Both the position numbers and the translations under genes were made by a program. Of a stretch of 64,000 nt of DNA, positions 17,083 to 54,888 are shown one piece after another. The notes beneath the pieces were generated by a model. The model worked only from the letters and a program-made list of their open reading frames with translations, was not told the DNA's origin and ran no database searches. This DNA comes from an uncultured Bacteroidales bacterium (GTDB lineage: Bacteria > Bacteroidota > Bacteroidia > Bacteroidales > UBA3663). The stretch spans positions 98,054-162,053 of the forward strand of contig CAMPAQ010000002.1 in NCBI GenBank assembly GCA_946631995.1, in the 5' to 3' direction. Within the stretch, counting starts at the first letter, position 1; each line of letters starts with the position of its first letter.

Positions 17083-17088
17083 TATGGG

Positions 17089-19612: not shown

Positions 19613-19682
19613 TAATTTTTGATTTACGATTTGGTTGATTTGTATTCAGAAAAACACCAGTAGAACAATAGCTATTTTTTAT

Positions 19683-19860
19683 AACCACAAAGGCACGAAA
19701 AACACGAAATTTTTTTTCTTGGCCTATGTGTTTCAACCACAGAAGACACGGAAAGAACGGAAGACACGGAAAATTATGTTTCATTTGACCTCCATTTTTT
19801 GGCCGATGTGGGTTGTTTGTTTTAACCACAGAAAAAAACGGAAATAAACGGAAAAATTTG
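19683..19860. repeat. three degenerate tandem modules: AACCACA followed by helically phased ACG(G)AA hexamers
   Basis: AACCACA occurs at 19683, 19735 and 19824. ACGAAA occurs at 19695 and 19704. ACGGAA occurs at 19748, 19757, 19766, 19838 and 19848. The hexamer spacing is 9-10 nt. The modules lie upstream of the transporter operon. Confidence 0.7.
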
Positions 19861-19898
19861 CGTTCGCTACGCGATTTTTGTGCGATGCCGTTTGCCCG

Positions 19899-19992
19899 CC
19901 GTAGAGACGTTTCATGAAACGTCTCTACAATTTCCACACCATGATTTTGCCCTACCGTAGAGACGTCACACTGTGGCGTCTCTACAATTCCC
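19899..19992. repeat. two copies of REP-like hairpin CCGTAGAGACG-loop-CGTCTCTACAATTYCC
   Basis: 19899-19935 reads CCGTAGAGACGTTTCATGAAACGTCTCTACAATTTCC. 19955-19992 reads CCGTAGAGACGTCACACTGTGGCGTCTCTACAATTCC. Confidence 0.85.
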
Positions 19993-20005
19993 GCGCCCAA
20001 TTCCC

Positions 20006-20048
20006 GTATATACTCCCCTCCCTTGTGGAGGGGTCGGGGGAGGGGCCG
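20006..20048. repeat. C/G-rich hairpin element, copy 2
   Basis: The sequence is GTATATACTCCCCTCCCTTGTGGAGGGGTCGGGGGAGGGGCCG. CCCCTCC pairs with GGAGGGG. It directly abuts the GH115 stop codon at 20049-20051. Confidence 0.7.
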
Positions 20049-26563: not shown

Positions 26564-26666
26564 GACTTTTTGATTTTAGTGATTAGATTTATGTTGGTTA
26601 TAAGAAGGTTTGTAAAAATAAGGTTGTAAAAACGGAAAGAGCTCTGGAAGGTCGGTTTGAACGGCG

Positions 26667-26674
26667 CAAATATA
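26667..26674 (-). promoter_or_regulatory. -7 box TATATTTG upstream of the 1297-aa gene
   Basis: The minus strand reads TATATTTGCGCCGTTC, about 100 nt upstream of the ATG at 26563 and downstream of the SusD terminator. Confidence 0.45.
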
Positions 26675-26920
26675 GATTCAAATATTGCAACAGAATTACG
26701 ATTTTGTAACAAGTTCTTTCGTTTTTCGATACAAATCAATTTTTCGGAAGCAAGCCCCGCCCCCACCGCCCAAAAATGGCTGAAATGTGAGGTTCAGAGC
26801 CGCCGCGCCACGATTGCCGCACCCTAAATTTGCAACATTTCGGCATGTTTCATGTGTTACGAAAACGTAATTCGGCCAAAGTCGGGGCGGAACGGTGATT
26901 TGGACAATACCGGCGGGATT

Positions 26921-26951
26921 CCGTAGAGACGCCACAATGTGACGTCTCTAC
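26921..26951. repeat. REP-like GTAGAGACG hairpin, copy 3 (inverted relative to copy 2)
   Basis: The sequence is CCGTAGAGACGCCACAATGTGACGTCTCTAC. The loop is the reverse complement of the 19955 copy with 1 mismatch. Confidence 0.85.
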
Positions 26952-26985
26952 CCAACGACGACGAAACGCTGCACCCACTACGCGG

Positions 26986-27023
26986 AAAAACGAAAAAAAG
27001 AGACGCGCCGATGGCACGTCTCT
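26986..27023 (-). terminator. intrinsic terminator after SusD (built from GTAGAGACG-family hairpin, copy 4)
   Basis: The minus-strand RNA reads AGAGACGUGCC-AUC-GGCGCGUCUCU, an 11-bp stem with one U-G pair, followed by UUUUUUUCGUUUUU. It lies 28 nt past the SusD stop. Confidence 0.75.
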
Positions 27024-27050
27024 ACGGAATATGTTGATAGTTGTCGTCAA

Positions 27051-28775
27051 TCACTTCATCGGCAGATACCAGTTGCTCGTCGTCATCAGACGGGTGCGCA
27101 TAGCGGGGTCGATGTCGCCGTCGCGTGCGGCAACCTTGTCGGCCAGATAGGCGGGATCGTCGCGGCGCAGGGCAACACGCATCAGGTCGTAGAAGCGGTG
27201 GCCCTCGAAGAAGGTCTCCATGGCCTGCTCTTCGATGATGCGGTCTTCAACCCAGAGGATGGTGTCGGCAGCAGTCGGAAGCACAGGAATCGCGTAGGCG
27301 GTGTCGGCATCGGCTGCGGTGCCTGCTGCACAATGGATGCCGATGACGGTGCCGAGCGTTGTCGAAGAAGAACCTCCGCCCAAAGCTGCATCGCACCGCG
27401 TGGTATAGTCCGAACCGACGAAGATGGCCGGATCGAAATAGATGAGGCTGCCGGCGCGCTCCACTTCATCGGCCGCAATCGGGTTGCCGCCGGCGCGGTT
27501 GGTGGTGTTGTCTTCACACAGGCCATACTTCAGCACGGCGAAGGCTGCGGTCGGGAATCCGGCGCGGTTCAGGGCCTCGGCATAGTGCAAATAGATGTAT
27601 GGGCTGCGATAGATGTCGAGCGTAGAACTGTAGATCTTGCCGTTCACGGTCTGGTACGAGCGGCTCCACTTGTCCTTGTAGTCGGACGTGTAGCTCTGGC
27701 GCACGTGGGCACGGATGCGCAAGTCGCCGTTGAGCTCGCGCTCGCTGTAGTGATGCTCCGGCCAGACGATGGTGTCGCGCGTCATGTCGGGCTGAACATC
27801 GACCACAACGCACCGCGTTGACTCGCTCTGACGCAACAGCGCCTCGGAATATGTGATCTCGTAGTAGTACTTGTTGTCGCTGGTCGATTCGTATATGTCG
27901 GGCAGCTGCGACACCACGCCATCATACATTGCATCGCTCTCGTAGGCCAAACTGAACTGAGCTCTCGATGAATAGGAGACCTTGTAGTCATAGAGTCCAC
28001 TTACATACTTGCGGTAGTTGAGGCCCAGATAGAGGGGAACCGGAGCATCGACATCGGTGAGGTATTCATGATACCAGTAGGCGGCTTCGTTGTATTCTCC
28101 GGCCCAGAGGTTAAGCTCGGCCAGCATCAGTTTCGGTGCAATCTGGACTTCTTCGTCCAGCCACGGAATCGGCTTGACGGTGGCCGACGGCTCGATGTCG
28201 TCGATGAGTCGGCTGCACACCTGGCTGATGTTGAGCTTTGGCTGCTTCATGATTTCATCGGCCGCAAGCTGGTTGTCGATGAAGTCCAGATAGAACGGGA
28301 TTTCGCCGTAGTTGAGTGCAAGCTGCAGATAGACCCATGCGCGATAGCAGCGCATTGCGGCCAGTTCGCGCTCGAACACGAGGCGGCCGTTCTTCTTGAG
28401 CGTTGAGTCGGCATTGTTGATGAAGTAGTTGCAGTTGTTGATAATCGCGTAGTAGTCCTGCGGATTGTTATAGACGTTGTCGGTGCTGACGTCGTTGGCC
28501 GCAAGTTCCTGCAGGTCTTCCGATGCGCTCGCCGTGAGGGTTGACAGGTCGGCACGCACTTCGCCAAGCAGGTTGGTGCGGTCGAGGATCGGCTGCATGA
28601 GGTGAATCAGACCTATGACCGAATAGACGGTGTCGTAGGGCGTGTCGAGCTGGTTGTCTTCCGGATAGAGCACGATGTCCGACTCCGGCTTGAGCATATC
28701 TTCGCACGATGTCGAGGTCAGGGCTGTGGCCAATGCAACGGTCGAGAGCAACGTGCCGTAAAGTATCTTTTTCAT
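27051..28775 (-). CDS. SusD/RagB-family nutrient-binding lipoprotein
   Basis: 574 aa with lipoprotein signal ALATALTSTSC. It carries a SusD-like TPR region (ELAAMRCYRAWVYLQLALNYGEIPF) and lies directly downstream of a SusC-like gene. Confidence 0.9.
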   Translation of the reverse strand: MKKILYGTLLSTVALATALTSTSCEDMLKPESDIVLYPEDNQLDTPYDTVYSVIGLIHLMQPILDRTNLLGEVRADLSTLTASASEDLQELAANDVSTDNVYNNPQDYYAIINNCNYFINNADSTLKKNGRLVFERELAAMRCYRAWVYLQLALNYGEIPFYLDFIDNQLAADEIMKQPKLNISQVCSRLIDDIEPSATVKPIPWLDEEVQIAPKLMLAELNLWAGEYNEAAYWYHEYLTDVDAPVPLYLGLNYRKYVSGLYDYKVSYSSRAQFSLAYESDAMYDGVVSQLPDIYESTSDNKYYYEITYSEALLRQSESTRCVVVDVQPDMTRDTIVWPEHHYSERELNGDLRIRAHVRQSYTSDYKDKWSRSYQTVNGKIYSSTLDIYRSPYIYLHYAEALNRAGFPTAAFAVLKYGLCEDNTTNRAGGNPIAADEVERAGSLIYFDPAIFVGSDYTTRCDAALGGGSSSTTLGTVIGIHCAAGTAADADTAYAIPVLPTAADTILWVEDRIIEEQAMETFFEGHRFYDLMRVALRRDDPAYLADKVAARDGDIDPAMRTRLMTTSNWYLPMK

Positions 28776-28904
28776 ATTCTTTTAAGGTTTTGAGGTTTTG
28801 AGGTTCTGAGGTTTTAAGGTTATTTTGCTGAAGTCATTAGGTCTTGAGGTTCTGAGGTATAAAACCTTACAACCTGATAACCTTACAACCTCACGACCTC
28901 ATAC
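28776..28904 (-). repeat. intercistronic hairpin element A (tandem TGAGGT units plus inverted AACCTCA units)
   Basis: It fills the whole SusC-stop to SusD-start gap. The plus strand has 5 TGAGGT units on the left and AACCT/ACCTCA units on the right. It is homologous to element B. Confidence 0.8.
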
Positions 28905-31900
28905 TTACAGATTAATCTTCACACCAGCGCTGAAGTTGCGGCTCATCGGGAGCAGGCCACGGTCGATGCCTTGCAGCAGCACGTTGTTCGATGCCGAGAA
29001 TTCGGGGTCGCTGCCGAGGTATTTGGTCAGAGTGAAGAGGTTCTGGACGCCGCCCCACACGGTGATGCCCTGCAAGTAGCGCGAATAGAAGTCCCATGTG
29101 TAGCTCAGGCGGATGTTCTTCAGACGTAGGTACGAGCCATCTTCAATCCAGCGGTCGCTGAAGCGGCTGTTGCCCATCGGGTCGCCGTATGCGATGCGCG
29201 GCATGTCGGTCTGCTGGCCCTCGCTCGACCAGCGCGAACGCATGGCCGTGGTCTGGTTGTGGAAGCGTGAGCCGGCCTCGAGCAGCGAGCGCTGGTAGTT
29301 ATAGACATCGTTGCCGAGTGAGTAGTTGAACACGACGTCGAGCGCGAGCTTGCGCCACTGGAGGTGCGACGTGATGTTGCCGTAGATGTCGGGGTTCGGA
29401 TTGCCGATGACTACGCGGTCGGCATCGTTGATGATGTCGTTGCCGTCGTGGTCGATGAAGCGCATGTCGCCAGCCTCGAAGTACTGCTTCTCGCCGGTGC
29501 GGAGCACGATGCATTTGCCGTCTGCCGCAGCCTCGGCGCTGGTGCTATAGACGCCGTCGGTCTGGTAGCCGTAGAAGAGGCCCACCGGATGGCCCACCAT
29601 GGTGGCGATGTTGCCGCCGTAGGCTTCGGTCAGGAAGTCGCCGCTCGGCAGTTCGGTCACCTCGTTCTTGTAGTGGCCCACACTGAGGCCGAGCTGCCAC
29701 TGCCAGTCGCGCGTGTTGATTACCTTGCCCTGCACCTCGATGTCGAAGCCGGTGTTTTCAATCTTGCCCTTGTTGCTCCAGTTGCTGTCGAAGCCCACAA
29801 GGTAGTTGAGAGCCTGCTTCGAGAGCATGTCGGATGTCCAGCCCTTATAGGCATTGACGGCCAATGACACACGGTTGTCAACCAGATTGGCCTCGGCTCC
29901 CCACGAGAGGCGCTTGGTGGTCTCCCACTTGAGCGATGTGTTGCCGATGCCGCCCAGTGCGATGCCGACAGCCGATTCATGGATCTTGACCGACTTGAAG
30001 TAGGTGCGCGATGCGTTGAGATCGACGTCGTCGTTGCCGGTCAGGTCCCATGCGGCATTGATGCGCAGGTAGTTGAGCCAGCGGTTGGCCGGCATCCAGT
30101 CCTCATTGGTCACGACCCACGATGCACCGACCGACGGGAAGACGCCCCATGCCACGTCGAACATCTTCAGGGCGTGGTCGGCATCCTTGCCGAAGCGGGT
30201 GTTGGCCTCAAGGCTCATTGCGGCGTCGATGAAGTATTTGTCCCACAGGCCGTAGTTGGCCGACGCGTAGTAGGTGAGCGAAGTCACCTTCTCGTTCACG
30301 CCGTCGCTCTTGCGGTAGGTCAGGTCCTTGTTGATGTCGGGGATGTTGTCGTTGCCCGAATTGTAGGCCGTCAACCCATTGCCCTGATAGGTGTTGACCG
30401 CGTAGCGGAAGCCGCCGTCGAGGTTGAGGCGGTGTCCCTGCTTGACGTACTGCCAGTTGAGGCGCAGGTCGTTGCACAGCAGGTACTGGCGCGAGCTTGC
30501 GCTCTGGAGCGTGTTGCGCAGCGGCTGGGTGACCTTTGGCAGTTCGTAGTATGGCACACCGAAGACGGGAACGTAGTTGCCCTCGTCGGTGTTGAAGAGC
30601 ACGAAGCTGAAGTTGTCGCTCAACGTGAGGTTGTGGTCGAACTTTGCCGTTGGCGTGAGGCTCAGCGTGACCATTCGGGAGCCGAAACTGTTCTTGTTGC
30701 GGCCCTCGCCGTAGGTCAGGATGGCGGTCGGGTTGGCCAGACGGCCCTCGCCGGTGCGGTCGTAGAGCACACTGCTCAGGTAGTTGTCGGCATCGGCCAG
30801 ATAGTCGGAGAGCACGCCGCGTGTGTCGTACTGGTAGGGCGACAGGAACGGGCTCTTGATGAGGCCGAGGAAGCCGGGCGCGGTGATGACGGCGTTGTCG
30901 ATGTCGTCGGGAGCACCGTCGTTGCGCATGTTGCGGTTCACGTCGCTGTAGCTGGCATCGAGGCGGACATTCATCCACGAAGCGAGCTTGAGGTCGCTGT
31001 TGATGCGCAGGTTGAAGCGCGACATGTCGTTCTTCTTCAGCGTGGCCTCGCTCTTGATGTAGCCGAGCGAGATGTTGTAGTCGGCCGCATCGTCGCCGCC
31101 CTGCACGTTGATGCTGTAGCGCTGGGCGAAGGCTTCGTCATAGACCTCCTTCTTCCAGTCGGTGTTGTTATGATAGACTTTGTAGTAGTAGTAGTTGGGG
31201 TCTTCGCGCAGGAAGACGAATTCGTTGGCCTCGACGCCGGTCGTTCCGAGCAGTTCGGAGGCATAGGTGCGGTATTCCGACGCGTTCATCATGTCGGGCA
31301 ACGTCGGCACCTGCTCGAACGCACCAGAGATGTTGACGTCGATCCGCGTGTCGTAGCTGTGGCTGCGCTTGGTCTCGATGAGGATGACGCCGTTGGCACC
31401 CTTTGCGCCGTAGATGGCGGTTCCGTTGCGCAGCACCTTGACCGATGCGATGTCATCGACCGAGATGTTGGCCAGCAGGTTGTTGTAGAATCCGTCGTGC
31501 TTGGCTTCGCGGCCATACTGCATGTCGAGGATGATGCCATCGACCACGACAAGCGGCTGCGTGTTGACGTGCAGCGAGTTGATGCCGTTGATCAGCGTGA
31601 AGGCGCCCATGCCCGGCACACCGCCACGGGTCACGGTGCGGAGCTGGCCGCTCAGCGTCGATGCGATCTGGTTGTCGGCCGATGCGTCGGTCGTGAGGTC
31701 GCTGACGTTGGCCGTGAGCGATGTCTGTGCGGAGTTGGACAGGCCTACCTTGTCGGTGAACGTGGCCGGATAGAGTGCGGCATCGACGTCGGTCTGGCGG
31801 CCTGAGAGCGGAATCTGCTGTGCGTTGTAGCCCGCACGGACTATGCGGAGGCTCTTGACGTGGTCGGGCAGCACGATGACGTACTGGCCGGTCGAGTCGG

Positions 31901-32063
31901 TCATGGAGGCTATCTTCTTGTCCGAGAAGGCCTGGACATAGACACCGGCAAGCGGCTGCTGCGTGTGTGCGTCGCGGATGGTGCCCTGCACTGTGGTGTC
32001 GGCCAATGCCGTGGTGGCCATCAGCGCAGAAATGCCTAATATGAATGAGTTTTTCATTGTCAT
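28905..32063 (-). CDS. SusC/RagA-family TonB-dependent outer-membrane transporter
   Basis: 1052 aa. It has an N-terminal carboxypeptidase-regulatory-like domain (TVQGTIRDAHTQQPLAGVYVQAF), a plug (PLVVVDGIIL) and a C-terminal ...NFSAGVKINL. Confidence 0.9.
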   Translation of the reverse strand: MTMKNSFILGISALMATTALADTTVQGTIRDAHTQQPLAGVYVQAFSDKKIASMTDSTGQYVIVLPDHVKSLRIVRAGYNAQQIPLSGRQTDVDAALYPATFTDKVGLSNSAQTSLTANVSDLTTDASADNQIASTLSGQLRTVTRGGVPGMGAFTLINGINSLHVNTQPLVVVDGIILDMQYGREAKHDGFYNNLLANISVDDIASVKVLRNGTAIYGAKGANGVILIETKRSHSYDTRIDVNISGAFEQVPTLPDMMNASEYRTYASELLGTTGVEANEFVFLREDPNYYYYKVYHNNTDWKKEVYDEAFAQRYSINVQGGDDAADYNISLGYIKSEATLKKNDMSRFNLRINSDLKLASWMNVRLDASYSDVNRNMRNDGAPDDIDNAVITAPGFLGLIKSPFLSPYQYDTRGVLSDYLADADNYLSSVLYDRTGEGRLANPTAILTYGEGRNKNSFGSRMVTLSLTPTAKFDHNLTLSDNFSFVLFNTDEGNYVPVFGVPYYELPKVTQPLRNTLQSASSRQYLLCNDLRLNWQYVKQGHRLNLDGGFRYAVNTYQGNGLTAYNSGNDNIPDINKDLTYRKSDGVNEKVTSLTYYASANYGLWDKYFIDAAMSLEANTRFGKDADHALKMFDVAWGVFPSVGASWVVTNEDWMPANRWLNYLRINAAWDLTGNDDVDLNASRTYFKSVKIHESAVGIALGGIGNTSLKWETTKRLSWGAEANLVDNRVSLAVNAYKGWTSDMLSKQALNYLVGFDSNWSNKGKIENTGFDIEVQGKVINTRDWQWQLGLSVGHYKNEVTELPSGDFLTEAYGGNIATMVGHPVGLFYGYQTDGVYSTSAEAAADGKCIVLRTGEKQYFEAGDMRFIDHDGNDIINDADRVVIGNPNPDIYGNITSHLQWRKLALDVVFNYSLGNDVYNYQRSLLEAGSRFHNQTTAMRSRWSSEGQQTDMPRIAYGDPMGNSRFSDRWIEDGSYLRLKNIRLSYTWDFYSRYLQGITVWGGVQNLFTLTKYLGSDPEFSASNNVLLQGIDRGLLPMSRNFSAGVKINL

Positions 32064-32087
32064 AACTAATTGCGGTTGTCGAAATTA

Positions 32088-33869
32088 TTAGTTGCCGGCC
32101 TCGGTGTCGGTGTGAGGTTTGAAGACGATGCGGTCAACGAACCAGACGCCCCAATACTTGTTGGTCTCCTGATTGGTGATGGCGTTGATGATCTTGACTC
32201 GCGTAGTGGGCTGCGACAGCGCGTAGCTGCACGTCGGGAAGGTCATGGTGCAGAGCTTCACCGAATCGACCGACAACGGGTCGTTGATGAAGGCGCGCGT
32301 GTTGGCGTTGGTCGGGTTGACGTTGCAGTCGAACAGGTATGGGTCGCTCGACGAGCCTTTCACGTAGTAGGCATCGCTCTCGGGGTCGATCTTGTAGTGC
32401 GTCTTGCAATCGACGGTGTGCGACTTGCCGTCCAGACCCTGATAGGTGATTTCGGCCTTGAACTTGGCCGGACGCAGGTTACGCTTGCCGGCCGTGGTGC
32501 TGTCGTCGAAAGGCAGCGTCGGGTTGACGTCGCGCGGCAGGAAGACGACATAGACATCGTAGGTACCCGACTTCACGCCGCCAATCTCGCACTCGAAGAA
32601 GTAGGGGTCGGTCTGAGTCTGCGGAGTGAAGGTCATGTAGTTGTAGGTCACGCGGCTGTCGTTGGTCGGCACGATTTCGGCTGTCAGCTTCTTGGTCTTG
32701 ACGCCCTCCTCGTAGGTTGTCAGACAGCCCTCGATGTCGTTGATGAGCGGATAGAAGTAGAGGTGCTCTTTGTAGAACGGCCACTTGTCGAGCTTGTAGA
32801 TCCAGCCGTTGGAGCACTGCTGCGAGCCGCTCCATGTGCCGGGGTGGAACAGGCCGCCCTCGTCGAACACGTCGTAGTAAACGTGGTGCAGGAAGAGCTC
32901 TTCGGTCTCGTAGGGCGAATACACCCACGGTGTGCTGGCGAAATAGCGGCTTGGATTGTGCTGATCCTTGGGGTTGTAGAAGAGGTCCTGCATCAGGGCG
33001 TAGTGGGAATAAAGCTCGTGGAGCGAGTCTGGCTTATCGACACCAACGTAGTTGAAGTAGGTCTCGGCCTCGGCATAGAGCGAATCCCAGAGCTCCTTCT
33101 CGGGAATCAGTGCCCAATAGGTCGAGTCTTCGCCGTTGAGCACACCAAAACTGTAGGTGCCGAGCAGGGGGTTGGTCGAATAGAACACCGAGTCGATATA
33201 GACCGTCTTGCCATCGACGACACCCTTGGCGAGCGATGCTGCCTCGTCGAGCTTGTCAACCTGATAGCTGCGCAGGAAGCGGCCGATGTGCTCATATTCG
33301 GGCAGGCCGACCAGAGCCTCATAGATGTTGTGGTAGTAGGGCGACTGCTGCTTCAGGATGTGCATCACGCCGTTGCGGGCTGCGACGTTCGTCTCGACGA
33401 AGCCGATGCCGTTGAACGATGCGGCATTCTGCGTGATGGTCTTGCCGTTGAACATGTAGATGGCCTCGTCGTCGGCCTTGACCGAATGGGCGAAGCGCGC
33501 TACGTGGTTTTTCACAAAGTGAAGCTCGACGAGCGAGTCGCCCGTGGTGGTCTGGCACATCTGGATGAGCGAGTCGCGGTTGAAGGTGCCGTTGACGGGT
33601 GCCCACACGGTGAAGAACTGGTCGTTGCCGAGCAGGGTGGCATAGGTCACGTCGGTCTGGCGGCAGTTGGAGAAGACCTTTGTCTTGTCGAGCACGTCGC
33701 AGAAGTCTGACAACTCCGGACGCGAGCGCAGCACGTCGTAGAGGCTGGCGGTACCCATCGGAGCGTCGGCCTTCTGTCCGTAGTGGTCGTCCCAGTCGTC
33801 CTGACAGCCGGTCAGGCAAGCGGTTGCCGTGGCGGCTGCAATGAGCGCAAGTTTTATTTTGTTGTTCAT
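32088..33869 (-). CDS. fasciclin (FAS1) domain lipoprotein
   Basis: 593 aa with lipobox ATACLTGC. FAS1 motifs are FFTVWAPVNGTF and ARNGVMHILKQ. Confidence 0.7.
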   Translation of the reverse strand: MNNKIKLALIAAATATACLTGCQDDWDDHYGQKADAPMGTASLYDVLRSRPELSDFCDVLDKTKVFSNCRQTDVTYATLLGNDQFFTVWAPVNGTFNRDSLIQMCQTTTGDSLVELHFVKNHVARFAHSVKADDEAIYMFNGKTITQNAASFNGIGFVETNVAARNGVMHILKQQSPYYHNIYEALVGLPEYEHIGRFLRSYQVDKLDEAASLAKGVVDGKTVYIDSVFYSTNPLLGTYSFGVLNGEDSTYWALIPEKELWDSLYAEAETYFNYVGVDKPDSLHELYSHYALMQDLFYNPKDQHNPSRYFASTPWVYSPYETEELFLHHVYYDVFDEGGLFHPGTWSGSQQCSNGWIYKLDKWPFYKEHLYFYPLINDIEGCLTTYEEGVKTKKLTAEIVPTNDSRVTYNYMTFTPQTQTDPYFFECEIGGVKSGTYDVYVVFLPRDVNPTLPFDDSTTAGKRNLRPAKFKAEITYQGLDGKSHTVDCKTHYKIDPESDAYYVKGSSSDPYLFDCNVNPTNANTRAFINDPLSVDSVKLCTMTFPTCSYALSQPTTRVKIINAITNQETNKYWGVWFVDRIVFKPHTDTEAGN

Positions 33870-34023
33870 AATTTTAGGTTGTGAGATTTTGAGGTTATGA
33901 GGTTTTGAGGTTCCCTTGCTAAGGTTTTGAGGGTGTTTTGCTGAGGTATTCAGGTCTTGAGGTATATAACCTTATAACCTCACAACCTTAAAACCTCATA
34001 ACCTTAGCCAAGCCCTTTTATGT
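33870..34023 (-). repeat. intercistronic hairpin element B (homolog of A)
   Basis: It fills the gap between the two FAS1 genes. It shares the core TTTTGCTGAGGTATTCAGGTCTTGAGGTATATAACCTTATAACCTCACAACC with element A. Confidence 0.8.
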
Positions 34024-36018
34024 TCAATATCTGTCTTCAGCCACGACACCGTTATAGACGCTCTTTGGCACGATTTCGATATAGTCGAGCGACATTTCGG
34101 CATTGTTGTCGAGCACCTGGCGCAGGCGGATGTAGTAGTCGTGGCCCTCCTCAAAATACTTGGTGGTGAGGATGCGGCGCAGGCACTGCTTGTAGCCGTT
34201 GTTGCGCATGGTGGTCTCGCCGTGCGGGTGGGTGTACGAACCCGGACCCTTCATGTAGCCCTGGTTGCGCATAGCCTTGTCGTTGGCCTCGATGGCCTCT
34301 TCGTCGCCAAGGTCGGCATCGAACTCCCAGCCGTAGGCATCGCCGAACTTACGGAGGTCAACTGGGATGCCGCACGGGATGTCGCCCGTCAGGTTGTCGT
34401 CGAAGTAGATCTGCACGACGGTACGCTCGCTGCCGGCCTGATAGCCGAGGCGCACCTCGTAGGTCTGCCCCGATGGCACTGGCGGCAGCTTGAACTTGAT
34501 GTCGAAGTTGTCGAGGCAGGCGCACATGTCGTCTTCGTATGAATTGCACCAGAAGCGCTCGTGCACGCCGTAGAAGGTGTCTTCGCCGAAGATGAAGTTC
34601 TTGGTGAAGCCAGGCTTGAAGCCCATCATGAGGTATTCGGAGCCCTTCGACTTGTCGTCGGAGTTGCGGATGATGTTGCGTGCGCCGGCATTCATGAAGT
34701 CGGGCGACAGCGTGGTGGCGTCGATGCGCATACGGGTGTTGAGAATCTTGCCGATAGTCACGTCGAGGTCATACTGCACGAGGCGGTCAACGTAGTAATA
34801 GACGCCGTTACGCGAGTCGCTGTAGTCGCTGTAGAGGGCGTTCGACTCGGATGGCGTGAGGATGCGCGCGCCCACCTGGTCGGAACTGACCTTCTGGCCG
34901 ACGCCGTTGCGGTTCACATATTTCTGGCCGACGGCATCGCTCACCTTCAGGATGGTGTAGGGAGCCATCGTCTCGTAGAACTCCATGATGTCCTGCTTGT
35001 CGGTGAGGAACTGCGAGCGCACCGAGCCGTCGAATCCGGCCTCCGACACGGTCAGCTCCGAATAGGACGACCAGCGGTCCAGGATGTGGTAGGCGACCCA
35101 GCGGTTGAGCGGGTTCTTGCGGTTGGACCAGTCGTTGTCATACAGGCCGGCATCCTGCGGATAGGTGCGGTCATAGACCTCCTTGGCATGGCGCTTGAGG
35201 TCGTCGAGGCTATTGATGCCGTACTTGTTGTAGATCGAGTCGGGCTCGGCGAAGATGGAGTATTTGAACTCGCGCTTGGCCGGGAAGCGGTAATAGACGT
35301 TGTGGTTGCCGAAGTACTTGGTGTGCTTCTTGTCGGCCACGGTCGAGTCGGGGTCGATGACGTAGTCCTCGTCTTCGATGCGGCTGTCGATGGTGTCGGC
35401 CAGACCGGTGAGGCGCAAGGCGGCACCGAAGATGGTGAGGTTCGGGTCATTGCACACAAGCTCGCCCAACAGGACGGACGACGAGGTGATGACCTGGTTG
35501 ACTACGTGCATTACGCCGTTCTCGACCGAGTCGTCGCGCACGATCATCTCCGACGAGTTGATGTGGTACTTCACTTCGCCGGCCACGGTGTCGCAGGTGA
35601 GGGTGAGGTAGCGGTTGTTCATGTTGGTGGTAGGCAGCGAGCCGTCGCCGAGGTCGGTGGTGAAGTAGGCCACCTTGAGCAGGTGCATCCACGCCAAGGT
35701 GTCGCACTCGGCATCGGTCAGGTCGTCAACGCTGGCCTTGTCGCGCTTGGCGAGGTAGTCGTTGATGGCATCGTTGGTCGGTGCGAAGCAGGTGAATGTG
35801 CCGTAGGTCGAGAGCAGGTCCCACAGTTCGGCACGCTGCAGCACATCGACGAATTCGGTGAACCGCTGAGCCGTGTCGTTCTGCAGATAGTCCGTAACCA
35901 TCTCACCGGTGAAGGTGTAGTAGGCATCCTGCGGAATCGAGTCGTCGATGCACGATGTGACCGTCCATGCCGAACTCAGTCCGAGCAGTGCGCACAATGT
36001 ATAGAATATCTTTTTCAT
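34024..36018 (-). CDS. fasciclin (FAS1) domain lipoprotein
   Basis: 664 aa with lipobox AWTVTSC. FAS1 motifs are FTCFAPTNDAINDYL and VENGVMHVVNQVI. Confidence 0.7.
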   Translation of the reverse strand: MKKIFYTLCALLGLSSAWTVTSCIDDSIPQDAYYTFTGEMVTDYLQNDTAQRFTEFVDVLQRAELWDLLSTYGTFTCFAPTNDAINDYLAKRDKASVDDLTDAECDTLAWMHLLKVAYFTTDLGDGSLPTTNMNNRYLTLTCDTVAGEVKYHINSSEMIVRDDSVENGVMHVVNQVITSSSVLLGELVCNDPNLTIFGAALRLTGLADTIDSRIEDEDYVIDPDSTVADKKHTKYFGNHNVYYRFPAKREFKYSIFAEPDSIYNKYGINSLDDLKRHAKEVYDRTYPQDAGLYDNDWSNRKNPLNRWVAYHILDRWSSYSELTVSEAGFDGSVRSQFLTDKQDIMEFYETMAPYTILKVSDAVGQKYVNRNGVGQKVSSDQVGARILTPSESNALYSDYSDSRNGVYYYVDRLVQYDLDVTIGKILNTRMRIDATTLSPDFMNAGARNIIRNSDDKSKGSEYLMMGFKPGFTKNFIFGEDTFYGVHERFWCNSYEDDMCACLDNFDIKFKLPPVPSGQTYEVRLGYQAGSERTVVQIYFDDNLTGDIPCGIPVDLRKFGDAYGWEFDADLGDEEAIEANDKAMRNQGYMKGPGSYTHPHGETTMRNNGYKQCLRRILTTKYFEEGHDYYIRLRQVLDNNAEMSLDYIEIVPKSVYNGVVAEDRY

Positions 36019-36034
36019 AGTCGTAAGGATGATT

Positions 36035-37780
36035 TTATTTCTTTGAAGTCTCGGTGGTGACGTAGGCCGGATTCTGTTTGATGTTGTCCGGGTTCATGTC
36101 AATCTCGCGCTCGGCGTAAGGCCAGAACAGGGCGTTCTGCGACTGCAACTGGACGCGGATTCGGTTGGCATTCTTCTGCTGCTTCGGCAGGACGGTGTTG
36201 ATGAGGTCCTGGTTGTTGCCGTCGTGCAGTGCGTAGCGCACAAGGTCGTACCAGCGCTTGCCCTCGAACATCAGCTCGCGGTGACGTTCGTCGCGCACCA
36301 GCTGTCGCATTGAAGCCTGGTCGGAATATTTGTCGGCCGCAAGGCAGTTGCTGTTGCCCTCGGTGAGGTCGTTGGCGCGGTTGTAGATGGCCGACACGAT
36401 TTCAAATGCCTCTTTCAGGTTATCCTCGCCGCCCAGCTCGACCAGAGCCTCGGCGCGGAGCAGCATGATGTCCGGCAGGCGGTAGATCGGCCAGTTCAGG
36501 TTGCCCTTGGTCGAATACTCGTTCACATAGACCGTCACCTTCGGCGTGTTTCCGGCCTGCGTGGGCAGGGTAAACTCGAATCCACCATATTGGAACTTGT
36601 GGATTTCGATGCCGCTCTCGGGCACGGGCACCGGGAAGTACTCGCAGAAGCGGCAGTCGGTGTATTTGAAGTACTTGTTGGCGTCGGTGAAGGCGCTGGT
36701 GACCAGATCGGGATTCACGTTGCAGAGCGCACGCTTGTTGGCATCCTGCCAGCTGTAGATGAACGTAGCGGTAATCGGGTTCTCCTTGCTCTGGTTGTGG
36801 TCGTAAAGTTCGAAGACCGACTCGAGCGAGTTGCCGGCACCAAAGTTCATATAGTAGGCATTGCCGCAGATGTTGCTGCCCACCTCCGACTCGTTGTAGA
36901 GCGGATATTTGTCGTTGTGCAGCTTGACATCGGTGACGAGCGACGGATATTCCTCCTTCGTCTCGCGGTAGAGGTTGGCCTTGAAGTCGATGACCTTCTG
37001 CGCATAGTCGGCGCAGGCCTGGTATTCGCCCAGCCAGAGGTTGATGTCGGCCAAAAGCGCGTAGAACGAGCAGAGGGTGACGCGGCTCGTGTTGTAAGGG
37101 TTGTCGGCGCGGGTGTATCTGCCTGACATTGGCGGATAGTATCGCATGGCATCGCCCTGCACGGCCTCGAGGTCGGTGACGAGCTGGCGCAGCAGCGGCG
37201 TGAACTCGGTGAGCGGGATGCGGTAGTCATTGTCGATGTCGTCGTCGGTGAGCGACGGCTTGGTCACGTAGGGCACGTCGCGGAAGGTGCGCGCGAGGTA
37301 GAAGTAGCACAGCGAACGGATCCAGACGGCCTCGGCAATGTTGGCACGGAGGTCCGACTCGCCGTAGTTCGGGTCGCGCTCGGCCACCTTCGGGGCGAAC
37401 TCGATGACGGTGTTGCAGCGGTTGATGACCTGATAGAAGGCCGTCCACGTGACGTTGGGGTTGGTTTCGAGGATGTTCTCTTCGATGATCTGCTGTATGT
37501 TGATGTCGTTGGCGCTCTTGGCATAGACCACGTTGTCCGAACGGAGCTCGCCCCAGATGAACAGTCGCTTCATGAAGTTTTCATCCAACATGCCCGAGTA
37601 GCAGGAGTTGACCACGCTCTCGACGTCGGACTTGTCCTCCCAATAGTTCTCGAACACGATCTCGCCCATCGGCTTCTGGTCGAGGAAGTCGTCGCACGCG
37701 CTGAAGGCTACGGCCGATGCCCCAACCGGAAGTGCCGCGCCAAGCAGCCACTTGCCTATGTTTTTCGAAATATTATTCAT
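36035..37780 (-). CDS. SusD/RagB-family nutrient-binding lipoprotein
   Basis: 581 aa with lipobox AVAFSAC. SusD-like motifs are FIWGELRSDN and WIRSLCYFYLARTFRDVPY. It is downstream of a SusC-like gene. Confidence 0.9.
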   Translation of the reverse strand: MNNISKNIGKWLLGAALPVGASAVAFSACDDFLDQKPMGEIVFENYWEDKSDVESVVNSCYSGMLDENFMKRLFIWGELRSDNVVYAKSANDINIQQIIEENILETNPNVTWTAFYQVINRCNTVIEFAPKVAERDPNYGESDLRANIAEAVWIRSLCYFYLARTFRDVPYVTKPSLTDDDIDNDYRIPLTEFTPLLRQLVTDLEAVQGDAMRYYPPMSGRYTRADNPYNTSRVTLCSFYALLADINLWLGEYQACADYAQKVIDFKANLYRETKEEYPSLVTDVKLHNDKYPLYNESEVGSNICGNAYYMNFGAGNSLESVFELYDHNQSKENPITATFIYSWQDANKRALCNVNPDLVTSAFTDANKYFKYTDCRFCEYFPVPVPESGIEIHKFQYGGFEFTLPTQAGNTPKVTVYVNEYSTKGNLNWPIYRLPDIMLLRAEALVELGGEDNLKEAFEIVSAIYNRANDLTEGNSNCLAADKYSDQASMRQLVRDERHRELMFEGKRWYDLVRYALHDGNNQDLINTVLPKQQKNANRIRVQLQSQNALFWPYAEREIDMNPDNIKQNPAYVTTETSKK

Positions 37781-37936
37781 AGATATGGATTTTTTTTAGG
37801 AGTTAATGGGAGTTAACAGAAGTTATCATTCGCATTTGCTCATTTGGTAGTTAACGGACATTTGTTTGGGTAGCCGGAACTGACGTCCGTTAACTCCCTA
37901 CTAACTCCCGTTACCTCCATTTAACTCCCTACATTG
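37781..37936 (-). repeat. intercistronic hairpin element C (GGGAGTTAA / TTAACTCCC units)
   Basis: It fills the SusC-stop to SusD-start gap. GGAGTTAATGGGAGTTAAC on the left is matched by GTTAACTCCCTACTAACTCCCGTTACCTCCATTTAACTCCC on the right. A nested perfect 10-bp pair GTTAACGGAC/GTCCGTTAAC is also present. Confidence 0.8.
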
Positions 37937-40900
37937 TTAGAACTGAATATTGCATCCGGCACTGAAGCTCTTCGAGCGCGGTGTCTGTGCATTATCGACC
38001 ACGATGCCGTAGTTGCCGTAGTTGACCTCCGGGTCGGCGCCGCTGTAGTTGGTCAGGCAGAAGACGTTGTTGCCCTGCAGGAACACCGAGATGCGCGACA
38101 GGTGCAGACGCTTGCAGACCTTCGGGTCGATGGCGTAGTTGAGGCTCGTGTAGTTGAGGCGCAGGAATGAGCCATCCTCCACAAAGCGGTCGCTGCCCAG
38201 CCAGTTGTAGCCTGCATTGTGCAGTGCGCGCGGGATTTCGGTCACGTCGCCCTCCACACGCCAGCGCCAGTTGACGGCACGGCTCTGGTTGTTGTTGTTG
38301 TACATCGACTCGGCGTTCATGCGTGCGCCGTTGATGATCTTGTTGCCGTAGCGGAAGTTGAACTGCGTGCTCCACGAGAGCGAGCCCCACGAGAGCTTGA
38401 AGCCGAAACCGCCGGTCACCTTTGGCAGTGACGAACCGATATAGACGATGTCAAGCTCGTTGATGTTGCCGTCGTGGTTCACATCTTCGTAGATGGCATC
38501 GCCGCCCTTGAACTCATACTGCGAACCGGTGCCGAACGCGAAGTACATCGGCTTGGTCTTGCCCAGCTCGTCGAGGATGGCCTCACCCTCGGCATTGCGT
38601 GCCACCGGGGCGTTCGGGCCGCTGATGCCCGGCACCTCCTCGGCCGAATAGACGCTGTACTGATAGACGCCCTTGTAGCGGAAACCGTAGATTGAACCGA
38701 ACGGAGCCTTGAGCTGGATGTGGGTCAGATATTTGCCGTTGTTGAAGTTGAACTCCTCGTTCATGCGCTCCAGGATGCTGCCGTCCATCGAGATCAGCTT
38801 GTTCTGGTTGTTGGCAAAGTTGACGTTGAGGTCGAGGTTCCACTTCTTGCCCCAGCGGATGAGGTTGTAGGTGTTGGCGTTGAACTCCCAGCCCACGTTG
38901 TCCATGCGGCCGGTGTTCTTTTTAGGCAACGTCTCGAAGCCGGACGACGACGGAATCGGATAATTGTCCATCATCAGGCTGGTGGTCATTGACTTGTAGA
39001 GGTTGATATCGGCCGTAACCTTGTTGTTGAAGAAGCCGAGGTTGGTGCCGAGGTTGTACTGCTCCTTCTCTTCCCAGCGCAGGGTGTTGAGCGCGATGTT
39101 GTTCGGATAGACGGCCTGCAGTCCCATGTAGGATGTTGTGCCGCCGTACTTGGCGTAGAAGAGTCCCTCCTTGTTCGGCTGGTTGCCGACGATGCCCCAG
39201 CCGGCACGCAGCGAGAACATTGACAGCCAGTCGTCGGTCTTGTCGAGGAATGCCTCGTCGCTGATGTTCCATCGGAGTGAGACGCCCGGGAAGTTGCCCC
39301 AGCGCGACTCTTTGCCGAACTTGCTGCTGCCGTCGCGGCGGATGGTGAAGTCGAACGAATAGCGCTCCTTGTAGGCATAGTGCACCTGACCGGTGAGGTA
39401 GATGCTGTGCCACTCCGATGCTCCGCTGTTGAACTTCTCGTCGATCAGACCGACGCCGGCCGACGATGTCATGCTGCCGTAAGGCATGTTGTAGTTGCCG
39501 TTGCCCTGCGAACGCGAGTTGCCCGATGTGAGCTGGAAACGTGCCATGGCCATCAGGTTGTGGTCGCGGTTGGGGAATATCGGCTGGAAACGGATGGTCT
39601 GCTGTGTGGTGATGGCAAACGACTTGCTTGCATCGCTCTCCGACTTGTTGCGGCTCTTGTCGTTGTAGCTGCCGATGACGAGCGACGACGGGTAGAACGA
39701 GTCTTCATAGCGGTTGAAGATCGAGAAGTTGACCTTGCCCTCGTAGGTGAGGCGCGTCGATTCGTAGTCGGTGGCCATAAGGTCGTACTTCAGGATGAAC
39801 TCCGGCTGGATGTTGAAGGTCTTCTCCAACTTCCAGGCCTCCTTGGCCAATGCCACAGGGTTCGCCAACGAGCTCTGGTCATCCTTCACCTTGAATTCGG
39901 GGCTGATGTCGCTGCTGATGTGGTAGAACTCATCGGTCGGCACACCGTCCTCATCTTCGACGTAGATGGCGAGGTTAGGCATCTTCTTGTAGGCGATGCC
40001 CAGCAGGTCGCCGTTGTTCTTGTGGTTGTTGGTGTAGGTGAAGTTGAAGTTGGTCGTCACCTTGATGCGCTCCGACAGAAAGTAGTCCAACGCCGTGCGC
40101 TCGGTGAAGCGGTCGAGCTTCTGTTCGATGATTGAGCCGGTCTGGTGGTCCCAGCCGAGCGAGAAGCGGAAGTTGGCCTTCTCGCCACCGCCCGTCACGT
40201 TGAGCGCGTGCTTCTGCTCCAGACCTGTCTGCTTGACGGCCTTGCGCCAGTCGGTGTCGTTGTTGTACTGGCGCCAGTCGGGGAATTCGGCATCCGAGTG
40301 CAGATACTGGATCTCCTTGATGTCGGCTGCATCGTCGTTGAAGTTGCGGTTGAAGTACGACTCCTTGAGGAACATCGTGTATTCGCCGCCGTGCAGCAGC
40401 TTCATGCCCTCAGGCTGGTAGGTCACGTTGGCACGATATGAGTAGTTGACTCGCGTAGCGCCGCGCGAACCGCGCTTCGTCTTGATTTCGATGACGCCGT
40501 TGGCACCCTGCGAACCCCAGATGGCCGTGGCCGATGCATCTTTCAGCACCGAGACCTCCTCGATGTCTTCAGGGTTGATCTGCAACAGTTCCGACAGCTT
40601 GTCTTCGGTGGCATTGTTGAAGTCGAAGTCCTTCTTGTAGTCCGACTCGAACACGTTGCCATCCACTACGACCAGAGGCTCGGCATTGCCGTTGATGGTC
40701 GATACGCCACGCAGACGCATCGAAGTGCCTGCACCCAGGTTACCGCTGGCAAACACGATGTCGAGGCCGGAGATTCGGCCCTGCAACGCCTCGTCGATCG
40801 AGGTTACGGTGGCAAGGTTGTCGATGTCGGCGGCCTTGATGCTCTGCATCGTGCCCGAATATTCGTTGATCGGGATGTCGAGACCCGAAGTCGAGGTCTT

Positions 40901-41254
40901 CTTCTTCTGCGACACGACGACCTCGTCGAGCGTCTGGCTCTGCTGCTTGAGCACGAGGTTGTAGCTCAGTCCCCTGATGGGGACGACGAGCGTCTGGCAG
41001 CCGATGAAGGTAATCTTCAGGCTGTCCTGCGGATTGCGTATGGCGAACGAGAAGTTGCCGTTGATGTCGGTTACGGCCGATGCCATGACGCGGTTGTCCT
41101 TGTTGAATTCGACGATGTGCGCGCCGGCAAGCACGTCAATTTCGTCCGATATGGTGCCCGAAATGACGTCGCCAGGCTTCTGGGCCCAGGCCGAAGCGGC
41201 CAGACCTGCCATTGCCATTGCGCAGACGCCTTGTGTGAAGAATCTATTTTTCAT
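37937..41254 (-). CDS. SusC/RagA-family TonB-dependent outer-membrane transporter
   Basis: 1105 aa. It has an N-terminal carboxypeptidase-regulatory-like domain, a plug (EPLVVVDGNVFE) and a C-terminal ...SFSAGCNIQF. Confidence 0.9.
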   Translation of the reverse strand: MKNRFFTQGVCAMAMAGLAASAWAQKPGDVISGTISDEIDVLAGAHIVEFNKDNRVMASAVTDINGNFSFAIRNPQDSLKITFIGCQTLVVPIRGLSYNLVLKQQSQTLDEVVVSQKKKTSTSGLDIPINEYSGTMQSIKAADIDNLATVTSIDEALQGRISGLDIVFASGNLGAGTSMRLRGVSTINGNAEPLVVVDGNVFESDYKKDFDFNNATEDKLSELLQINPEDIEEVSVLKDASATAIWGSQGANGVIEIKTKRGSRGATRVNYSYRANVTYQPEGMKLLHGGEYTMFLKESYFNRNFNDDAADIKEIQYLHSDAEFPDWRQYNNDTDWRKAVKQTGLEQKHALNVTGGGEKANFRFSLGWDHQTGSIIEQKLDRFTERTALDYFLSERIKVTTNFNFTYTNNHKNNGDLLGIAYKKMPNLAIYVEDEDGVPTDEFYHISSDISPEFKVKDDQSSLANPVALAKEAWKLEKTFNIQPEFILKYDLMATDYESTRLTYEGKVNFSIFNRYEDSFYPSSLVIGSYNDKSRNKSESDASKSFAITTQQTIRFQPIFPNRDHNLMAMARFQLTSGNSRSQGNGNYNMPYGSMTSSAGVGLIDEKFNSGASEWHSIYLTGQVHYAYKERYSFDFTIRRDGSSKFGKESRWGNFPGVSLRWNISDEAFLDKTDDWLSMFSLRAGWGIVGNQPNKEGLFYAKYGGTTSYMGLQAVYPNNIALNTLRWEEKEQYNLGTNLGFFNNKVTADINLYKSMTTSLMMDNYPIPSSSGFETLPKKNTGRMDNVGWEFNANTYNLIRWGKKWNLDLNVNFANNQNKLISMDGSILERMNEEFNFNNGKYLTHIQLKAPFGSIYGFRYKGVYQYSVYSAEEVPGISGPNAPVARNAEGEAILDELGKTKPMYFAFGTGSQYEFKGGDAIYEDVNHDGNINELDIVYIGSSLPKVTGGFGFKLSWGSLSWSTQFNFRYGNKIINGARMNAESMYNNNNQSRAVNWRWRVEGDVTEIPRALHNAGYNWLGSDRFVEDGSFLRLNYTSLNYAIDPKVCKRLHLSRISVFLQGNNVFCLTNYSGADPEVNYGNYGIVVDNAQTPRSKSFSAGCNIQF

Positions 41255-46169: not shown

Positions 46170-46226
46170 GCCCGGCCGCACAGCCCGCTACGCGGATTTT
46201 ATCGCACCGAACAAAACACACCCAAT

Positions 46227-48287: not shown

Positions 48288-48484
48288 ACTCCGCAGAAAT
48301 TTTCGTCGCAAGAAACGACAAATTATAAATTGTGTTTATTCGGTTAATTGTTTTGTTTTTGGATGGGGGATGTTGTGTGAACAACGTCCCTTTTTCTTTT
48401 GCCCTGCGGTGCGAAGGTTAGAAATAGAAATTCGCATAGTCCTATTCGCAACGCGTTGCTCAATCGATGGCAACCAGCAAAGAA

Positions 48485-48516
48485 AAAAGAGGATGTTTCA
48501 AATGACATCCTCTTTT
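48485..48516. terminator. bidirectional terminator between convergent GH30 and OMP genes
   Basis: A perfect 12-bp stem AAAAGAGGATGT / ACATCCTCTTTT has an 8-nt loop and A/T runs on both sides. Confidence 0.7.
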
Positions 48517-48547
48517 CAGATAGCTGCTACGCGGATTTTGCCCGAAA

Positions 48548-48563
48548 GTTTCAAATTTGAAAC
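48548..48563. repeat. perfect 16-bp palindrome GTTTCAAATTTGAAAC
   Basis: Read directly; 17 nt past the OMP stop. Related TTTGAAAC half-sites occur at 44044-44185. Confidence 0.9.
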
Positions 48564-48580
48564 ATCGCGAAACCGACAGG

Positions 48581-52390: not shown

Positions 52391-52398
52391 TACATTTG
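52391..52398 (+). promoter_or_regulatory. -7 box TACATTTG upstream of the GS-III gene
   Basis: TACATTTGCACCGTC is an exact TAnnTTTG match. It implies a ~115-nt leader. Confidence 0.4.
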
Positions 52399-54884: not shown

Positions 54885-54888
54885 TCGG

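Follow-up and report, generated by a model that had tools for sequence, protein, structure and literature searches.

Three long intercistronic spacers in a seven-gene polysaccharide utilization locus (PUL) operon are each taken up by a hairpin-forming element made of short tandem units and their inverted complements. The operon lies in a 64,000-nt window of DNA from an uncultured Bacteroidales bacterium (assembly GCA_946631995.1, contig CAMPAQ010000002.1, positions 98,054 to 162,053 of the forward strand), and the elements are here called A, B and C. We read them as non-coding mosaic palindromic repeats that can be swapped between strains and that would affect the stability of mRNA segments much as repetitive extragenic palindromic (REP) or enterobacterial repetitive intergenic consensus (ERIC) sequences do, a reading whose functional part we infer and to which we assign a probability of about 0.5. 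Comparison of orthologous operons indicates that the elements are lineage-specific and exchangeable, and that the operon does not require them.

The spacers of the operon measure, in order, 15, 156 (C), 16, 154 (B), 24 and 129 nt (A), precisely the tight (15, 16 and 24 nt) and long (129-156 nt) junctions listed in a first-pass annotation of this DNA. In mRNA sense (the minus strand for all operon features given here), each long spacer runs from purine-rich tandem units through complementary A/C-rich units to an A-rich stretch and the AUG, the arms of A and B using GAGGUU-type octamers (8 nt), those of C 10-11-mers of the GGGAGUUAA type. The unit GAGGTTNTRAGGTT (at most one mismatch) has 15 matches in the 64-kb window, all within A or B, against 0.10 expected from shuffles; GGGAGTTAA has three, all within C (0.23 expected). 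Predicted folds of the mRNA strand reach -39.8 kcal/mol for A (z -5.7), -46.4 kcal/mol for B (z -5.5) and -56.1 kcal/mol for C (z -7.8), and no shuffled sequence folds as well as the real A, B or C. Unit counts and folds thus bear out the annotation's description of the long gaps as tandem units followed by their inverted complements.

Element A constitutes the whole 129-nt susC2>susD2 spacer (28776-28904). Its 5' arm, located by unit search, holds five purine-rich GAGGUU-type octamers (28863-28901), the first of them 4 nt past the UAA stop, and the 5' part as a whole is 36% G and 5% C. An inner block of ACCUC-type units (28839-28859) is predicted to pair with the inner G units into an apical hairpin; then come a non-repeat core, ACUUCAGCAAAAUAACC (28818-28834), which aligns with sequence in B and in the orthologous locus L122, and, as the 3' arm, five AACCUC/AACCUU units (28784-28821), the last two of which, together with AAAAGAAU, are unpaired ahead of the AUG in the fold. 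Element B, a paralogue of A by alignment, is the whole 154-nt spacer between the 664-aa FAS1 gene and the 593-aa gene (33870-34023), with a 5' arm of five AAGGUU/GAGGUU units (33968-34005), a core, ACCUCAGCAAAACACCC (33931-33947), homologous to that of A, and a 3' arm of AACCUC units (33876-33912) whose predicted stem closes 6 nt ahead of the AUG. Element C is the whole 156-nt susC1>susD1 spacer (37781-37936): four GGGAGUUAA/GGAGGUAAC units of period 10-11 form its 5' arm (37889-37929), UUAACUCC(C) units its 3' arm (37799-37825), and an A-rich leader, unpaired in the fold, follows that arm (37781-37798). Between the arms the predicted fold contains the nested perfect 10-bp stem already noted in the first pass (GUUAACGGAC / GUCCGUUAAC, 37850-37894, 25-nt loop), in which GTTAACGGAC (37885-37894) pairs with GTCCGTTAAC (37850-37859); the family motif AACAAAUGUCC (37856-37866) lies in the same region.

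Three details of the earlier description need amendment. A and B are indeed homologous, but over ~125 nt (75% identity by blastn) and not ~60 nt; G-type units do begin right after the stop in A, but in B they begin 19 nt past it; and the surplus of C-type over G-type units holds in this operon but not as a general rule, the counts being 6 versus 7 in 16 co-directional hairpins elsewhere. The three elements stop 6-23 nt short of the AUG. The probability of being unpaired at -20 to -1 is 0.76 for A, 0.75 for C and 0.35 for B, compared with 0.74, 0.74 and 0.51 at the tight junctions, so in these models the A and C hairpins appear to leave the initiation region unoccluded.

We collected syntenic operons by way of SusD homologues. 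At L144 (SusD 67% identical) and L145 (61%) all three junctions are tight, at 6-33 nt. The closest relative, L142 (SusD 96%; ~97% nucleotide identity across the operon), has a C identical to that of the window and unrelated elements in place of A and B, the replacement at B consisting of AAGGGGAGUAAA / UUUUACUCCCC units; between the two genomes, homology at A is lost at the stop codon and regained at the start codon, and at B it is lost 14 nt past the stop and regained at the ATG. L143 (SusD 83%), which covers the C and B junctions only, has a hairpin of GAAAAGGAAGU / ACUUCACUUUC units at C and an L142-type element at B. L122 (65% identical to SusD2; ~78% nucleotide identity), which covers A only, keeps a window-type A that differs from ours mainly by two 8-nt unit indels. 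Because some operons have tight junctions where others carry elements, and because the elements of L142 have been swapped, A, B and C appear both dispensable and exchangeable. L142 also carries an extra insertion of ~110 nt, MITE-like (resembling miniature transposable elements with inverted repeats), directly past the susD1 stop at the susD1>FAS1b junction and flanked by an ATAA direct repeat. As a separate observation, this repeat includes the susD1 stop codon and the window has the empty site; the family (TTCTAAAAATCAAGAATTGGAGAATT...) has two copies in a window spacer at 2081-2250, the L142 insertion (L142:11747-11858) being the third.

Where elements are retained, they are well conserved. 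Window and L122 copies of A agree at ~92% of aligned positions, whereas the fourfold-degenerate sites of susC2 and susD2 on either side are 63-66% identical; window and L142 copies of C match at 156/156 positions (flanks 96.9%); and the B elements of L142 and L143 are 90% identical (flanks 77-85%). In the last pair a 5'-arm A>G change is apparently matched by a 3'-arm U>C change, although the register of the arms in that alignment is uncertain. This conservation of A, C and L142-type B may reflect either purifying selection or homogenisation between repeat units, two processes that the alignments do not separate. No unit has changed among window, L001 and L142, and the window differs from L122 by two unit changes; because only two unit indels have accrued over ~22% nucleotide divergence, the arrays are not hypermutable.

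The copies are held together by their cores more than by their arms. A motif A(A/G)CAAA(C/U)GUCC marks the 5' edge of the 3' arm in C of the window, in the B elements of L142 and L143, in the C-junction element of L143, at the FAS1a>susC1 junction of L144 and in the unlinked locus L093 of a Bacteroidales metagenome-assembled genome (MAG) from yak; there a C-homologous element follows the stop of a gene and has a promoter-like TAnnTTTG motif (read by eye) downstream. A and B carry a related core, CAGCAAAA(U/C)A(A/C)CC. Among core-sharing copies the arm units differ in sequence, yet the two arms are always complementary to each other. The core lies in the sense of the upstream gene in 7/7 roughly independent copies (two-sided p ~0.016, the copies being interrelated), which is suggestive only of a non-random orientation. 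Apart from L093, we found no core motif outside this lineage.

Arrays of related units extend far beyond this operon. Searching 185,579 species genomes for RAGGTTNT units three in a row, we obtained GAGGTTNT arrays from at least 120 loci; of the 120 listed, ~105 belong to Bacteroidota (an approximate count from record titles), among them Prevotellaceae, Alloprevotella, other Bacteroidales, Flavobacterium, Sphingobacteriaceae, Saprospiraceae, Hymenobacter and Chitinophagales, and the isolates Flavobacterium pectinovorum, F. aquidurense and F. hungaricum. Several genomes have 3-7 unlinked loci each among the matches listed. The pattern is rare in viral contigs (26 stretches in 2.9 million); a second pattern, GGAGTTA N3-4 GGAGTTA, was dropped there as too unspecific. 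Genes beside the 120 listed loci fall into ~190 different families, for example PurA, PurC, MiaA, UvrD, Lgt, AroA, KdtA, PorV and ribosomal protein L4; the 61 start-side genes matched 86 Pfam families, SusD in no case, and the 81 stop-side genes gave two TonB barrel and two SusD matches. The suggestion that copies might be restricted to PUL cistron junctions was therefore not upheld by the pattern search. The first-pass annotation had set a random scatter of copies against its own proposal; copies do lie close against gene boundaries, and so are not placed at random, yet PULs and cistron junctions are not their only sites. In Prevotellaceae and Alloprevotella the hairpin loops are mosaics of GGTCGCTTCGCTTT, GTCTTTAAG arrays and GGACTATGCAGTCC, in both orientations relative to genes.

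GAGGTT-type units are themselves one kind among many. Tandem Repeats Finder, run on 1.29 Mb comprising the selected loci and the window, reported arrays of at least three copies chiefly at period 7 (124) and period 8 (210, including 57 without AGGTT units), compared with 5, 21, 8, 10 and 6 at periods 6, 9, 10, 11 and 12. This sequence has roughly one array of period 7-8 in every 4 kb, and 270/307 lie outside open reading frames (ORFs), although ORFs make up 87% of it; 58 arrays end 0-9 nt ahead of a start codon and 78 begin between -10 and +9 nt from a stop codon. At orthologous susC>susD junctions from rumen metagenomes (L123-L137, ~100 nt upstream of the SusD match) other units run up to the ATG: TAGTGAA x5, TTTACAG, AAATCGAA and TTAATAAGTAAGAG x2. 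Inverted-array pairs occur at L029:908-1057, L050:1846-1959, L084:2999-3151 and L078:6205-6362, among unit types CATTGAC/GTCAATG, CCATTGA/TCAATGG, ATTTTAG/CTAAAAT and TTTGTGA/TCACAAA, so the plan of an array followed by its inverted array is not limited to GAGGTT units.

Composition follows position relative to genes. Arrays past stops are 8-9% C and 21-26% G (G exceeds C in 96/118, and in 36/47 with units other than AGGTT), while the first 40 repeat-free nucleotides past stops are 20.5% C and 20.5% G. Arrays ahead of starts are 19-25% C and 9-11% G (G below C in 70/96), with repeat-free 40-nt stretches there at 21% C and 15% G. The same holds for A, B and C, whose 5' parts are C-poor (5-6% C) and whose 3' parts are G-poor (7-11% G). 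Of 149 elements at the GAGGTT-type loci, 38 have a G-arm and then a C-arm, and none the reverse. Single arrays, too, are biased: C-sense reads towards the nearest gene, at starts (35 to 7) and at stops (37 to 14) alike. We rejected the 38:0 polarity and the single-arm bias as signs of selection tied to gene direction, a palindrome keeping its polarity upon inversion and the rule being the same at starts and stops. The depletion of C past stops relative to background is harder to dismiss than the polarity.

Our preferred reading, of swappable palindromic repeats with an effect on mRNA segments, would work as follows. An element comprises a 5' arm of 3-6 purine-rich units of 8-11 nt, a short family-specific core and a complementary A/C-rich 3' arm; A, B and C would be lineage-specific insertions, or whole-spacer cassettes swapped at gene boundaries, and may represent one form of the Bacteroidota-wide 7-8-nt arrays set against stop and start codons. 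Transcribed within the seven-gene mRNA, they would fold into imperfect hairpins of 30-45 bp and may persist because their layout is harmless. Rho utilization (rut) sites are C-rich, G-poor and unstructured, and a C-poor arm past the stop would offer no C-rich unstructured RNA on which Rho could load. In Bacteroides, Rho is an active and important factor (PMC13269538; reviewed in PMC12360218). The G-poor 3' arm, with few start-like triplets in A and B, would join the A-rich tail as the leader of the next gene, keeping the initiation region, which is independent of Shine-Dalgarno (SD) pairing, open while the remainder of the element is tied up in the hairpin. Bacteroidia initiate with SD-blind ribosomes (PMC7797042, PMC13000457) and select starts by upstream adenines and open structure (PMC13000457). 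The hairpin itself may act, in the manner of REP, ERIC or Correia elements, as a barrier to 3' exonucleases or as a site for double-strand RNases, uncoupling the stability of the upstream susC or FAS1 segment from that of the downstream one; ratios of SusC, SusD and surface glycan-binding protein (SGBP) would thereby be modulated, not defined; for such effects on subunit ratios within an operon, cip-cel is the precedent (PMC4423207).

Several observations weigh against this reading. The argument from Rho draws on base composition, and the proposed role in processing and stabilisation is an analogy with better-known repeats. Ahead of starts, the deficit of G is not significant in non-AGGTT arrays (25 vs 18), and the 38:0 polarity, which a palindrome retains upon inversion, may simply be inherited and is no proof of selection. 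The antisense strand is predicted to be more stable than the mRNA strand in 7/8 long hairpins, because the sense strand is A/C-enriched; a strand-specific test for G.U pairs, tried as support for selection on the mRNA strand, thus gave the opposite result, and the hairpin of the mRNA strand bears no G.U mark of selection. Paired changes in the arms could arise by template switching without selection. No target-site duplication is recognisable at A, B or C between window and L142, since entire spacers differ from stop to start; no transposase was found for the three elements, a parent insertion sequence not having been sought; and no further A/B/C-type copy occurs in the 64-kb window and 9.4 kb of flank (right flank L146 included).

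The placement of the elements might instead be explained by a dedicated device, in which hairpins evolved for this PUL fix the SusC:SusD:SGBP stoichiometry by selective RNA processing and stabilisation. Two of the three lie exactly at susC>susD junctions, the hairpins are stable, A and C change at a slower rate than neutral sites, and the cip-cel operon offers a precedent (PMC4423207). B, however, is not at a susC>susD junction, elements of the same kind stand beside housekeeping genes elsewhere, L144 and L145 manage with junctions of 6-33 nt, and L142, at 97% identity, shows unrelated elements in the places of A and B and a further one at susD1>FAS1b, so that a stoichiometry device specific to this operon, one of the functions first proposed, now looks improbable. 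Of those proposals, mRNA processing or stability survives as the most plausible consequence; the operon-specific stoichiometry and the SD meaning find no support. We consider it similarly improbable that the 3' arm is an unstructured landing pad and that terminating ribosomes open the stem for the downstream cistron. Single C-sense arrays do abut starts (35 vs 7, with a distance peak at 0-9 nt), the G-arm starts 4-8 nt past the stop in A and C, the B stem closes 6 nt ahead of the AUG and lowers accessibility to 0.35, Bacteroidia choose starts by upstream adenines and openness (PMC13000457), and TAACTGA repeats are placed alike (PMC4679880). But the -20 to -1 region of A and C is as open as at element-free junctions, so little would be gained by unfolding, the orientation rule applies at stops as well (37 vs 14) and follows from palindrome geometry, and unit counts of the arms show no asymmetry in mRNA sense.

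A purely selfish or neutral origin, with palindromes spread by slippage, template switching or transposition and confined to spacers because insertions elsewhere are lethal, is a reading that we rate as unlikely. It would account for the presence/absence and replacement polymorphism, for mosaic loops in both orientations, for several unlinked copies per genome, for antisense folds at least as good as sense folds, and for the MITE-like neighbour in L142 inserted at a stop codon with its ATAA direct repeat; it fits poorly with conservation well above fourfold-site identity and with the strong depletion of C past stops, and a hairpin of 40-56 kcal/mol within an mRNA is unlikely to be inert. A function at the level of DNA, as protein-binding arrays or as contingency loci switching expression by unit number, is very unlikely: tandem units are a classic slippage substrate, and unit indels do separate window A from L122 A, but two such indels over ~22% divergence, and none among window, L001 and L142, are not hypermutability, the units within an arm are imperfect, and an 8-bp period places successive sites on different helix faces. 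We give hardly any credence to an SD/anti-SD interplay in which G-arms serve as SD decoys or tethers and C-arms imitate the 3' tail of the 16S rRNA, possibly on ribosomes that have no bS21. The resemblance noted in the first pass is literal (GAGG/GGAG versus CCUC/CUCC, with units containing GAGG/GGAGG and CCUC/CUCCC), and ribosomes lacking bS21 recognise SD sequences in Flavobacterium johnsoniae (PMC9976891); but the SD-like arms are paired and stand 90-140 nt away from the AUG, G-sense arrays are depleted immediately upstream of starts (7 vs 35), arrays of the same class are often not SD-like (TAGTGAA, TTTACAG, AAATCGA), and Bacteroidia ribosomes are SD-blind (PMC7797042). A broader and rather unlikely extension would see an as yet uncatalogued punctuation of SD-less polycistronic mRNAs throughout Bacteroidota, with tandem modules of 7-8-nt units at stops and starts, a strand rule (C-poor past stops, G-poor ahead of starts) controlling Rho access and ribosome loading between cistrons, and hairpins as tunable, exchangeable insulators of cistron coupling.

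We place the elements with extragenic palindromic or mosaic repeats and with short-unit tandem repeats, although they match no named element. A scan of the window against Rfam 15 at gathering thresholds found no match, in keeping with the first-pass annotation, which recognised no named element; a scan by E-value gave only MIR8675 at 31 and 29 bits versus a gathering score of 90.8, chance hairpin matches. A sigma-70 promoter and terminator scan found neither at A, B or C, a Bacteroides-type motif inside the elements not having been searched for, and intrinsic terminators were ruled out since no U-run but A-rich sequence follows the hairpins. Nor do they have the layout of SD elements, which place the core 5-10 nt upstream of a start, the GAGG/GGAGG cores here being base-paired and far from the AUG. 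They do have the structure of intercistronic stabiliser or processing hairpins, with a stable stem-loop starting 4-19 nt past the stop. RNAalifold on six 'AACAAACGUCC' elements gave no usable covariation signal because the repeat register makes the alignment ambiguous, and we relied on per-copy folds instead. A search of full-text literature found no description of these elements or of an inverted octamer form, the nearest being PMC4679880.

Palindromes of the REP kind offer a first comparison. In the classes themselves, as known from enterobacteria and pseudomonads, REPs and bacterial interspersed mosaic elements (BIMEs), such as the malE-malF REP, form hairpins that protect upstream mRNA from 3' exonucleases. 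Like A, B and C, they are dispersed extragenic palindromes, often intercistronic, co-transcribed and modular mosaics; unlike them, REPs are 20-40 nt long, have a GTAG/CGTC head and are linked to REP-associated tyrosine transposases (RAYTs), while our elements are 129-156 nt, headless and tandem-armed, and on length and starts (GTATGAGG in A, ACATAAAA in B, CAATGTAG in C) we rejected that class. ERIC sequences, also called intergenic repeat units (IRU), and the Correia (nemis) elements of Neisseria are MITE-type palindromes of 100-160 nt in operon transcripts that alter RNase III/RNase E processing and stability. They share with A, B and C the character of long imperfect palindromes, inserted in transcribed intergenic regions, present or absent by strain and folding in the mRNA, but there is no sequence relationship, no target duplication is seen for A, B and C, MITEs conserve termini where A/B/C-type elements conserve the core and vary the arms, and arms of tandem units are unique to the A/B/C class. 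Measured against MITEs in general, the elements have terminal inverted repeats, in that the arms reach the element ends, as tandem-unit arrays and not as conserved transposase sites; as to dispersed copies, A and B are paralogues and GAGGTT hairpins stand unlinked, several to a genome, elsewhere, but conservation lies in the cores and not in the variable arms.

Direct arrays are the other relevant group. The short tandemly repeated repetitive (STRR) heptamers of cyanobacteria are short tandem intergenic repeats. TAACTGA heptamers occur in Beggiatoaceae, cyanobacteria and a few Bacteroidetes and are suspected of a role in translation (PMC4679880). Both resemble our arrays in having short units of a period that is not a multiple of three, nearly all intergenic and ending a few nucleotides from starts, a placement that A, B and C share. 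They differ in being direct arrays of one fixed heptamer, whereas A/B/C-type units are of 8-11 nt and many types, with an array and its inverted complement around a core; the head-to-tail 7-nt unit is absent from A and B (8 nt) and C (10-11 nt). The BrickBuilt element of Porphyromonas gingivalis reportedly has a repeat unit of ~22-23 bp that lies between distinct MITE ends and does not itself form inverted arms. It is described as a minisatellite-containing MITE (PMC4596501) and is alike as an intergenic non-autonomous Bacteroidales element with internal tandem repeats. For the cip-cel cellulosome operon of Clostridium cellulolyticum, intergenic stem-loops have been proposed to set subunit stoichiometry (PMC4423207); these, too, lie between the cistrons of an operon, one that encodes a multi-protein machine for degrading polysaccharides, but they are reportedly conserved in that operon and have mapped processing sites, where A, B and C appear dispensable and replaceable and are known from sequence alone.

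The seven genes of the operon, all on the minus strand, encode in order an 888-aa FAS1-domain protein (41270-43936), SusC (susC1, 1105 aa, 37937-41254), SusD (susD1, 581 aa, 36035-37780), a 664-aa FAS1 protein (34024-36018), a 593-aa protein (32088-33869), a second SusC (susC2, 1052 aa, 28905-32063) and a second SusD (susD2, 574 aa, 27051-28775); the same locus is present, identical, in MAG GCA_002373755.1. The terminator scan placed a terminator-like hairpin with a T-run, formed by a REP-like AGAGACG...CGTCTCT palindrome, at 26999-27023 (minus strand), 28 nt past the susD2 stop. It is likely the 3' end of the seven-gene transcript, and because it follows the last SusD gene a single transcript of ~17 kb is plausible. 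In the 487-nt spacer beyond susD2 (26564-27050), upstream of a 1297-aa gene and a GH115 gene, a Bacteroides-type -7 promoter motif (TAtaTTTG, within '...ctatatttgcgcc') can be made out by eye, which suggests that these two genes form a transcription unit separate from the PUL operon.

Other repeats populate the window. REP-like palindromes GTAGAGACG(N)CGTCTCTAC occur paired in long spacers at 26918-27030 and 19601-20048, and also at L146:700-740, and fit the 'GTAG-tagged' superfamily among the REP superfamilies described earlier (PMC3733652). Pyrimidine-first hairpins, CCCCTCCC...GGGAGGGG then GTATATAC, lie directly past stops at 17040-17088 and 20000-20048, in the minus-strand spacers 16661-17088 and 19601-20048, with a polarity opposite to that of A, B and C; similar ones occur at junction A of L142, in L140 and in L005. 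The motif CGCGTAGCG / CGCTACGCG recurs in spacers 1667-2332, 16661-17088, 19601-20048, 46170-46226, 48288-48580, 52199-52520 and 54708-54975. Beyond the right edge of the window, a long spacer (L146:1-330) has GGAGTTAAG-type units ~35 nt apart and then GAGTCAAC units; the GGAGTTAAG unit resembles the arm unit of C, though not in a hairpin arrangement. [quoted passage not shown] A gene for a 274-aa Bro-N-domain protein (59604-60428) stands between cas9 and cas1, which is unusual within a cas operon.

PUL operons are the core of glycan foraging in gut and rumen Bacteroidales, and little is understood of the post-transcriptional balance among SusC, SusD and surface-binding proteins. If elements such as A, B and C alter segmental stability or cistron coupling, their rapid exchange among strains that are nearly identical would offer evolution an inexpensive means of retuning PUL output. 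More widely, the excess of period-7/8 arrays at gene borders, together with a composition rule absent from repeat-free spacers, suggests some constraint or mechanism, not yet studied, in a major phylum, and culturable relatives that carry GAGGTT arrays make this phenomenon at cistron borders testable.

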